Program-made: the position numbers
Assembly (NCBI RefSeq): GCF_003334335.1
Contig: NZ_QOWQ01000023.1
DNA length: 64,000 nt
Reading direction: 5' to 3' (one strand)
Origin: Escherichia coli
GTDB lineage: Bacteria > Pseudomonadota > Gammaproteobacteria > Enterobacterales > Enterobacteriaceae
Part shown: piece by piece, positions 21,601 through 24,600 of the stretch
Layout: each line of letters opens with the position of its first letter
How positions within the stretch are numbered: the first letter of the stretch is position 1

Positions 21601-24600
21601 GGTGCCATTCAGTCTGTTCTTTCATCTCGCCGGTCGCTTTATCACGCCAGGATTCGGAAGTAGCCAGCGTAATGTTGGCAACTGCGCCACCATTTGGCAT
21701 GTAGCGTACTTCCGGGTCCTGACCCAGATTACCAACGAGAATAACCTTGTTTACGCCTCTGCTGGCCATGTTCGTGTCTCCTGAAAAAAATCGTTCTGAA
21801 TAAGTGTAAACGCGCGATTGTACCATTACCAATAGCGCTTTTACTATGTTGTGACCTCGGTTCCGGGAAACAAACCTGGCCAGACATTGTTACACAACAC
21901 TCCGGGTAATGCATTCCAATACTGTATATTCATTCAGGTCAATTTGTGTCATAATTAACCGTTTGTGATCGCCGGTAGCACCATGCCACCGGGCAAAAAA
22001 GCGTTTAATCCGGGAAAGGTGAATGGATAAGATCGAAGTTCGGGGCGCCCGCACCCATAATCTCAAAAACATCAACCTCGTTATCCCCCGCGACAAGCTC
22101 ATTGTCGTGACCGGGCTTTCGGGTTCTGGCAAATCCTCGCTCGCTTTCGACACCTTATATGCCGAAGGGCAGCGCCGTTACGTTGAATCCCTTTCCGCCT
22201 ACGCGCGGCAGTTTCTGTCACTGATGGAAAAGCCGGACGTCGATCATATTGAGGGGCTTTCTCCTGCCATCTCAATTGAGCAGAAATCGACGTCTCATAA
22301 CCCGCGTTCTACGGTGGGGACAATCACCGAAATCCACGACTATTTGCGTTTGTTATTCGCCCGCGTTGGCGAGCCGCGCTGTCCGGACCACGACGTCCCG
22401 CTGGCGGCGCAAACCGTCAGCCAGATGGTGGATAACGTGCTGTCGCAGCCGGAAGGCAAGCGTCTGATGCTACTCGCGCCAATCATTAAAGAGCGCAAAG
22501 GCGAACACACCAAAACGCTGGAGAACCTGGCAAGCCAGGGCTACATCCGTGCTCGTATTGATGGCGAAGTCTGCGATCTTTCCGATCCGCCAAAACTGGA
22601 ACTGCAAAAGAAACATACCATTGAAGTGGTGGTTGATCGCTTCAAGGTGCGTGACGATCTTACCCAACGTCTTGCCGAGTCATTTGAAACCGCGCTGGAG
22701 CTTTCCGGTGGTACCGCGGTAGTGGCGGATATGGACGACCCGAAAGCGGAAGAGCTGCTGTTCTCCGCCAACTTCGCCTGCCCAATTTGCGGCTACAGTA
22801 TGCGTGAACTGGAGCCGCGACTGTTTTCGTTTAACAACCCGGCGGGGGCCTGCCCGACCTGCGACGGCCTTGGCGTACAGCAATATTTCGATCCTGATCG
22901 AGTGATCCAGAATCCGGAACTGTCGCTGGCTGGTGGTGCGATCCGTGGCTGGGATCGCCGCAACTTCTATTATTTCCAGATGCTGAAATCGCTGGCAGAT
23001 CACTATAAGTTCGACGTCGAAGCGCCGTGGGGCAGCCTGAGCGCGAACGTGCATAAAGTGGTGTTGTACGGTTCTGGCAAAGAAAACATTGAATTCAAAT
23101 ACATGAACGATCGTGGCGATACCTCCATTCGTCGTCATCCGTTCGAAGGCGTGCTGCATAATATGGAGCGCCGCTATAAAGAGACGGAATCCAGCGCGGT
23201 ACGCGAAGAATTAGCCAAGTTTATCAGTAATCGTCCGTGCGCCAGCTGCGAAGGGACGCGTCTGCGTCGGGAAGCGCGCCACGTGTATGTCGAGAATACG
23301 CCGCTGCCTGCTATCTCCGACATGAGCATTGGTCATGCGATGGAATTCTTCAACAATCTCAAACTCGCAGGTCAGCGGGCGAAGATTGCAGAAAAAATCC
23401 TTAAAGAGATCGGCGATCGTCTGAAATTCCTCGTTAACGTCGGCCTGAATTACCTGACGCTTTCCCGCTCGGCAGAAACGCTTTCTGGCGGTGAAGCACA
23501 GCGTATCCGTCTGGCGAGCCAGATTGGTGCGGGCCTGGTTGGCGTTATGTACGTGCTGGACGAGCCGTCTATCGGCCTGCACCAGCGTGATAACGAGCGC
23601 CTGTTGGGTACGCTTATCCATCTGCGCGATCTCGGTAATACCGTGATTGTGGTGGAGCACGACGAAGACGCAATTCGCGCCGCTGACCATGTGATCGACA
23701 TTGGCCCGGGCGCAGGTGTTCACGGCGGTGAAGTGGTCGCAGAAGGTCCGCTGGAAGCGATTATGGCGGTGCCGGAGTCGTTGACCGGGCAGTACATGAG
23801 CGGCAAACGCAAGATTGAAGTGCCGAAGAAACGCGTTCCGGCGAATCCGGAAAAAGTGCTGAAGCTGACAGGCGCACGCGGCAACAACCTGAAGGACGTG
23901 ACGCTGACGCTGCCGGTGGGTCTGTTTACCTGCATCACCGGGGTTTCAGGTTCCGGTAAATCGACGCTGATTAACGACACACTGTTCCCGATTGCCCAAC
24001 GCCAGTTGAATGGGGCGACCATCGCCGAACCAGCACCGTATCGCGATATTCAGGGGCTGGAGCATTTCGATAAAGTGATCGATATCGACCAAAGCCCAAT
24101 TGGTCGTACTCCACGTTCTAACCCGGCGACCTATACCGGCGTGTTTACGCCTGTGCGCGAACTGTTTGCGGGCGTACCGGAATCCCGTGCGCGCGGCTAT
24201 ACGCCGGGACGTTTCAGCTTTAACGTTCGTGGCGGACGCTGCGAGGCCTGTCAGGGCGATGGCGTGATCAAAGTGGAGATGCACTTCCTGCCGGATATCT
24301 ACGTGCCGTGCGACCAGTGCAAAGGTAAACGCTATAACCGTGAAACGCTGGAGATTAAGTACAAAGGCAAAACCATCCACGAAGTGCTGGATATGACCAT
24401 CGAAGAGGCGCGTGAGTTCTTTGATGCCGTACCTGCACTGGCGCGTAAGCTGCAAACGTTGATGGACGTTGGCCTGACGTACATTCGACTGGGGCAGTCC
24501 GCAACCACCCTTTCAGGCGGTGAAGCCCAGCGCGTGAAGCTGGCGCGTGAACTGTCAAAACGCGGCACCGGGCAGACGCTGTATATTCTCGACGAGCCGA

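Follow-up and report, generated by a model that had tools for sequence, protein, structure and literature searches.

Two genes of a 64,000-nucleotide stretch of Escherichia coli DNA (contig NZ_QOWQ01000023.1 of assembly GCF_003334335.1; hereafter the window) diverge from a short spacer that carries a match to the binding site of LexA. The genes are ssb and uvrA, and their arrangement raises the question of whether one LexA operator, or SOS box, can govern transcription in both directions and, if so, whether it does so equally. In this analysis, we established the site, its matrix score, its conservation across species, and its position relative to the published uvrA transcription start. We conclude with very little doubt that this is a single LexA operator that E. 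coli uses for both members of the divergent pair uvrA and ssb. Its control is asymmetric, being strong for uvrA and partial for ssb.

The core of the site is the 16-mer CTGTATATTCATTCAG at positions 21922–21937, which lies between the divergent start codons with exactly the sequence and coordinates given in the original prediction. Gammaproteobacterial SOS boxes are 16-bp imperfect palindromes of the form CTGT-N8-ACAG, with invariant CTG and CAG trinucleotides 10 nt apart and an AT-rich centre. The core fits this palindrome at 15 of 16 positions. Its left half-site is perfect and its right half-site is weaker, with TCAG in place of ACAG, and it holds both the CTG and the CAG that the definition of a gammaproteobacterial LexA operator requires. 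When at most one mismatch is allowed, CTGT-N8-ACAG is observed 19 times in the window compared to 17.5 expected occurrences, which is no excess over chance. Pattern matching alone therefore proves nothing, and weight matrices were used instead. The same counts favour a reading in which the match is a chance AT-rich near-palindrome that has no function, as does the existence of a further LexA-like 20-mer elsewhere in the window that scores at chance level.

Two weight matrices were prepared, and both exclude the uvrA/ssb site and the two lexA boxes of the window. The larger one comprises 23 sites from the compilations of Lewis 1994 and Fernandez de Henestrosa 2000. The smaller one holds only the 10 sites printed in Table 7 of PMC3009722, a table in which the box is given as the uvrA motif. 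With the larger, leave-one-out matrix, the 20-mer spanning the core scores 19.8 bits and ranks first in the 64 kb. This value is approximately the median of the training sites (median 19.95, range 13.0–27.1), and only 0.005 positions per shuffled 64-kb window are expected to reach it. The scoring proposed with the original prediction has thus been carried out, and the result does not fall below the threshold for functional LexA sites. With the smaller matrix, the site scores 15.2 bits (0.125 expected per shuffle) and is third after the two lexA boxes. These tandem lexA–dinF boxes (38786–38826) are located just upstream of the start of lexA, which is encoded on the minus strand at approximately 38171–38779, and provided an internal positive control of the matrix. 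A Berg–von Hippel heterology index calculated from our site set is approximately 5.85, which ranks 15th among 26 known sites; the published index of the uvrA/ssb box is 6.98 (PMC9505508).

The spacer contains one high-scoring LexA site. The further LexA-like 20-mer mentioned above, GTCTGAATGAATACCCAGTA at 53634–53653, was considered as a second SOS site of the window. It reaches 11.4–13.4 bits and has a heterology index of approximately 10.2. Because shuffled windows give a mean best score just as high (12.6–13.0) and it overlaps the xylE start codon (53640), it was rejected as most likely a chance match. To our knowledge, xylE is not an SOS gene.

The locus itself is readily placed. The 801 bases around the site find a match in every one of the 5,426 complete E. 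coli genomes, in many of them at 100% identity, and the annotation beneath this match is ssb (SSB1) and uvrA. The two divergent genes are separated by a spacer of 253 bp (21770–22022) that is base-for-base identical to positions 4273872–4274124 of strain MG1655. The site is thus the known uvrA/ssb SOS box, and the original prediction was right to call the arrangement classic and to treat it as a positive control. The window is collinear with MG1655 over its length at no less than 99.96% identity, where the MG1655 coordinate equals 4295894 minus the window coordinate. Across 64 kb there are 15 substitutions and one gap, none of which falls in the spacer, and the window is K-12-like E. coli chromosomal DNA. 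Positions 1–75 of the window, downstream of gltP, lie outside the megablast alignment to MG1655.

On the uvrA side, the box can be positioned against a mapped promoter. A promoter and terminator scan of 21650–22150 at default settings gave no match, because its thresholds exclude the uvrA promoter, whose −35 element agrees with the consensus at just three of six positions. A relaxed scan, run after this blank result, predicts that uvrA transcription starts at approximately 21962. The published start, determined by 454 sequencing, is 62 nt upstream of the start codon and is the same as that of the known promoter uvrAp, for which a sigma-70 −10 box of ttgtGTCATAATtaac, also written GTCATAAT, is listed (Mendoza-Vargas 2009, supplementary file 3). 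A start at approximately 21961 places the 16-mer at −39 to −24, and therefore over the predicted −35 hexamer. The comparison of box and transcription start that was suggested for this locus thus supports an operator function on the uvrA side, and the overlap with the uvrA −35 element is also stated in PMC9505508.

To examine how widely the box is shared, we used an exact-pattern scan for the N-terminal coding sequence of ssb, with one genome per species, that yielded 120 gammaproteobacterial loci. The N-terminus of uvrA is also present in 88 of these, and it is divergent from ssb every time. The pair was considered adjacent when the gap between the two genes is at most 700 nt, which is the case for 52 loci. 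A LexA box of 14.4–23.4 bits is present in 51 of the 52, in most cases with its centre 75–100 nt from the uvrA ATG. Each of these 51 spacers was compared with 200 shuffled versions of itself. For 50 of them, no shuffled version scored as high as the real spacer, and for the remaining locus, from Yersinia, 1% did so.

Alignment of 46 spacers of 200–330 nt, mostly from species of Enterobacterales, reveals that the most conserved 16-nt stretch starts at 21921/21922 and is the box itself, with an identity to the window base of 0.91 compared to a spacer mean of 0.57. The next-most conserved block (21942–21957) corresponds to the uvrA extended −10 element, which is found at a constant distance from the box in nearly all species. 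It is followed, in order of conservation, by the proximal extended −10 element of ssb and then by the two ribosome-binding sites. Within E. coli, a single-nucleotide polymorphism (SNP) is present in the 61 nt from 21905 to 21965 in 982 of 5,426 records (18%). At least 28 exact bases of 21911–21940 are kept in 5,392 of the 5,426 genomes, and the box is intact in at least 99.4% of these complete genomes. Two variants that were sampled carry SNPs at 21909 and 21940, just beyond the 20-mer.

These observations bear directly on the possibility that the match is accidental. Its matrix score is far above that of shuffled sequences, it is the most conserved spacer element in 46 species and recurs in nearly every adjacent pair, it is invariant in almost all E. 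coli genomes despite varying flanks, and its position coincides exactly with the promoter of a documented SOS-induced gene. A chance origin is already refuted by conservation and position, and we regard its probability as negligible.

Conservation might also have a cause other than LexA, in that the block could be maintained mainly as the −35/UP region of the uvrA promoter or as the site of another regulator. An EcoCyc ArcA site is drawn in the spacer in Figure 1 of PMC9505508, promoter function alone would constrain the part of the box that overlaps the −35 element, and conservation extends to the weaker right half-site (TTCAG), as might be expected if promoter demands had shaped a compromise. 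However, the conserved positions are exactly the CTG and CAG placed 10 nt apart, together with the central ATAT of the LexA motif. Substitutions that occur across species, such as CTGT to CTGG and TTCAG to AACAG, remain within this motif, and some of them increase the score. Moreover, a sigma-70 −35 element would not need the distal CTG at −39 to −37. Conservation for a purpose other than LexA binding is therefore very improbable.

Two loci depart from the usual spacing. In Pectobacterium betavasculorum (locus L032, approximately 5166–5238), an insertion of approximately 73 nt separates the LexA box from the extended −10 element of uvrA. It contains internal inverted repeats, GGCAAGC...GCTTGCC and GTCGTCGCAAGCGACG, and resembles a small repetitive element or one like a miniature inverted-repeat transposable element (MITE). 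The insertion shifts the box approximately 73 nt upstream of its usual place, which may change how LexA controls uvrA in P. betavasculorum. A smaller insertion is located at the same point in Rahnella (L050).

The ssb side is more complex. The passage of PMC9505508 that cites Brandsma 1985 describes three promoters for ssb and limits LexA repression to the most distal one. We take the existence of these three promoters, like LexA-dependent induction, from the literature. The exact hexamers of the distal promoter are ones that we infer from the relaxed scan. The LexA box fills the spacer of one candidate (TTGACC/TGGAAT), and an alternative candidate (ATGACA/TATACA) is shifted towards uvrA; a bound LexA dimer would occlude either of them. 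The −10 hexamer of the first candidate, which reads ATTCCA on the plus strand, is kept within Enterobacteriaceae proper and not in other families of Enterobacterales. In addition, the scan predicts a proximal ssb promoter with an extended −10 element, whose T1, A2, T6, and upstream TG are conserved across Enterobacterales. At approximately 120 bp from the box, this promoter should be independent of LexA, in agreement with the two constitutive ssb promoters that have been published (PMC9505508). There is no ssb entry among the start sites of Mendoza-Vargas 2009, supplementary file 3. For the pair, start-site data support the uvrA side, and a response of both genes rests on published expression.

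Published expression data agree with relief of LexA repression at both genes. uvrA is induced by ultraviolet (UV) light (PMC3009722). For ssb, induction by UV or gamma rays, as measured by reverse transcription quantitative PCR (RT-qPCR), is abolished in a lexA3 strain, and a strain whose SOS response is constitutive overexpresses the gene (PMC9505508). In Salmonella treated with nalidixic acid, uvrA and ssb increase 11.2-fold and 9.6-fold, respectively, from one common box with a heterology index of 6.99 (PMC8072944). An ssb promoter reporter responds to UV and acts as an early SOS promoter (PMC5999292). The original prediction that one operator may serve both directions accordingly holds in full for uvrA, whose −35 element is covered, and only in part for ssb, where it applies to just the most distal of the three promoters.

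Several points weigh against a shared operator as described here. Of the sites in the larger matrix, just 10 were checked against the printed table (PMC3009722). The candidate distal −10 hexamer TGGAAT lacks the A that position 2 normally has, and the −35 hexamer of this candidate is not conserved. Finally, several older studies, immunoassays among them, and three microarray studies found no induction of ssb (PMC9505508), a result that fits a small contribution from the distal promoter.

Some of these points, together with others, could be taken to mean that the box is an operator of uvrA only, and that its place upstream of ssb is a by-product of adjacency with no physiological role for that gene. 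We consider this unlikely, although loci in which uvrA and ssb are split lend it some support. A gap of 1.7–2.2 kb divides the two genes in 11 Vibrionaceae loci. It holds two open reading frames (ORFs) of the same sizes and places in the ten loci from Vibrio and a single galU-sized ORF in the Photobacterium locus (L062). In L080 (2774–4410), the sole Vibrio locus tested, the gap genes are galU (TIGR01099, 411.8 bits, above the cut-off) and a LuxR/CsgD-like regulator, which we take to be probably the qstR–galU pair known in V. cholerae. The similar Vibrionaceae loci are L009, L017, L025, L045, L062, L086, L089, L094, L103, and L111. All 11 have a LexA box of 20.3–24.7 bits located 73–88 nt from the uvrA ATG, and near ssb there is no site of at least 11 bits save for one match of 12.8 bits. 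The Vibrio box is approximately 2 kb from ssb, and therefore it cannot act on this gene directly.

A different split is found in 25 loci from Shewanella, Idiomarina, Cycloclasticus, Kangiella, and others, where an ORF of approximately 455 amino acids lies upstream of ssb. In the sole such locus tested (L034, 7307–8674), this ORF is a transporter gene of the major facilitator superfamily (MFS) that is directly upstream of and co-directional with ssb, with uvrA divergent. A LexA box of the E. coli type occurs near uvrA in just two of the 25 loci. Its absence from the other 23 suggests that uvrA in these organisms either is without LexA regulation or is under the control of a different site. Furthermore, ssb paralogues and cut loci in which no uvrA is seen have no box within 400 nt, with the exception of one locus from Rosenbergiella. 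This Rosenbergiella locus is cut just past its box.

Judging from these sequences, the box tracks uvrA and not ssb, because the split Vibrionaceae loci keep it beside uvrA and ssb paralogues are without it. This pattern is somewhat at odds with PMC3323433, where independent ssb sites and regulation are described as retained in Vibrionaceae with a disrupted pair, though the species sets differ. The absence of an ssb-proximal box in 10 of the 11 split Vibrionaceae loci, the restriction of the candidate distal elements to Enterobacteriaceae proper while the proximal promoter is the conserved one, the negative radioimmunoassay and microarray results, and the equal expression of ssb in wild type and lexA3 cells during normal growth, in which the gene is SOS-independent (PMC9505508), all fit an operator that serves uvrA only. 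On the other side are the LexA-dependent induction of ssb by RT-qPCR and its overexpression under constitutive SOS conditions, the Salmonella induction, the UV-responsive reporter, and the argument of PMC3323433 that ssb regulation persists where the pair is broken. The ATTCCA flank on the ssb side, which is kept in Enterobacteriaceae, also fits a real distal −10 element. We therefore favour an operator shared by both genes in E. coli.

A shared operator in E. coli is compatible with an evolutionary history that was one-sided. The box may originally have been an operator of uvrA, kept at constant spacing to the −10 element of that gene, and LexA control of ssb may be a secondary gain of Enterobacteriaceae proper, acquired through a distal promoter (−10 TGGAAT) set against the existing box. 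Such control would be absent wherever other genes split the pair, namely galU and a LuxR-type gene in Vibrio or an MFS transporter gene in Shewanella, Idiomarina, and others. We offer this history tentatively, as a proposal whose chances are slightly below even. If true, it would be a modest refinement of the published view, in which selection maintains ssb regulation throughout Gammaproteobacteria.

Physical binding of LexA at uvrA/ssb was reportedly described by Sancar in 1982 and by Brandsma in 1983 and 1985. In undamaged cells, a LexA dimer would occupy the 20-bp site, cover positions −39 to −24 of uvrA including its weak −35 element, and bar RNA polymerase, leaving moderate basal expression of uvrA. 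On the other strand, the same dimer would also cover the core of the ssb promoter that is farthest from its gene. Upon DNA damage, RecA filaments on single-stranded DNA would stimulate self-cleavage of LexA and the site would be vacated. Presumably, uvrA then rises several-fold and ssb gains transcription from its distal promoter. Most ssb transcription would come from the proximal promoters approximately 120 bp away. Because these are expected to be beyond the reach of LexA, ssb would be highly expressed and only modestly inducible. The positions of all elements are collected in Table 1.

Table 1. Elements of the ssb–uvrA locus and the two lexA boxes, in window coordinates.
Feature	Position	Strand	Sequence or structure	Basis
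LexA operator (SOS box), 20-mer	21920–21939		TACTGTATATTCATTCAGGT	Matrix score, conservation, PMC3009722 Table 7
Predicted uvrA −35	21927–21932	+	TATTCA; 3/6 matches, 17-nt spacer, inside LexA box	Relaxed scan
uvrA extended −10	21947–21955	+	TGT-CATAAT	Relaxed scan; second-most conserved in spacer
uvrA transcription start	21961 (±1 nt)	+	62 nt upstream of ATG	Mendoza-Vargas 2009 supplementary file 3
Candidate distal ssb promoter (P1)	21913–21942	−	TTGACC (21942–21937), 18-nt spacer, TGGAAT (21918–21913)	Relaxed scan; putative
Alternative candidate distal ssb promoter	21952–21923	−	ATGACA (21952–21947), 18-nt spacer, TATACA (21928–21923)	Relaxed scan
ssb proximal extended −10 promoter	21817–21825	−	TGG-TACAAT; predicted start ~21810	Relaxed scan
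ssb coding sequence	21233–21769	−	178 aa, MASRGVNKV start, ATG at 21769	ORF and RefSeq annotation of identical DNA
uvrA coding sequence	22023–24845	+	940 aa, ATG at 22023	ORF and RefSeq annotation of identical DNA
lexA box	38786–38805		CCCTGGGTGTATATACAGTT	17.8 bits, larger matrix
lexA box	38807–38826		TGCTGTGAGTATATACAGCA	19.3 bits, larger matrix

Other features of the region and of ssb were noted in the course of this work. A search of Rfam with 21650–22150 at E-values up to 1 yielded no match, and therefore neither the spacer nor the uvrA leader holds a known RNA element. The leader does contain a GC-rich hairpin (approximately 21972–21992, CCGGTAGCACCATGCCACCGG followed by an A-run), which was rejected as a candidate; it is poorly conserved and no T-run follows it on either strand. 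Second copies of ssb are present in E. coli SCPM-O-B-8794 (L099, on a second contig) and in two further loci (L037 and L064), and their products are 74–90% identical to the chromosomal protein. L037 has neither a LexA box nor, within 6 kb, a uvrA gene, and no box is found in the 113 and 450 nt of upstream sequence of L064 and L099, respectively. Presumably, these copies reside on plasmids, integrative and conjugative elements (ICEs), or prophages.

The uvrA/ssb LexA box is a textbook element that is already known, and it is not a discovery of this study. Its biology, in which uvrA is SOS-regulated and ssb receives a modest SOS-dependent boost from one operator, has been known since 1982–85. 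The main value of the analysis is one of calibration, in that a characterized regulatory site was read from raw sequence with exact coordinates and the right neighbouring genes. What the comparative results contribute is no more than detail, namely that the box tracks uvrA, that its distance to the uvrA extended −10 element is fixed, and that the proximal ssb promoter is conserved.

The shared SOS box of uvrA and ssb is said to have been described by Brandsma et al. in 1983 (Nature 305:243) and 1985 (Nucleic Acids Research 13:5095) and by Fernandez de Henestrosa et al. in 2000, the last with the heterology index of 6.98. The element in the window is identical to that of E. coli K-12, with the same 20-mer, flanking genes, and orientation, and no difference between them. 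The autoregulatory boxes upstream of lexA–dinF are operators of the same family. They score similarly (17.8 and 19.3 bits versus 19.8) and also overlap a promoter. However, lexA has two tandem boxes for one transcription unit, whereas the uvrA/ssb locus has one box for two divergent units on which its effect is unequal. The corresponding region of Vibrionaceae (Sanchez-Alberola et al. 2012, PMC3323433) is like the E. coli locus in having a high-scoring LexA box at about the same distance from the uvrA start codon. Unlike the E. coli locus, the sampled Vibrio genomes carry two ORFs, galU and a LuxR-type gene in the locus tested, between ssb and the box, and there is no ssb-proximal box in 10 of the 11 loci.

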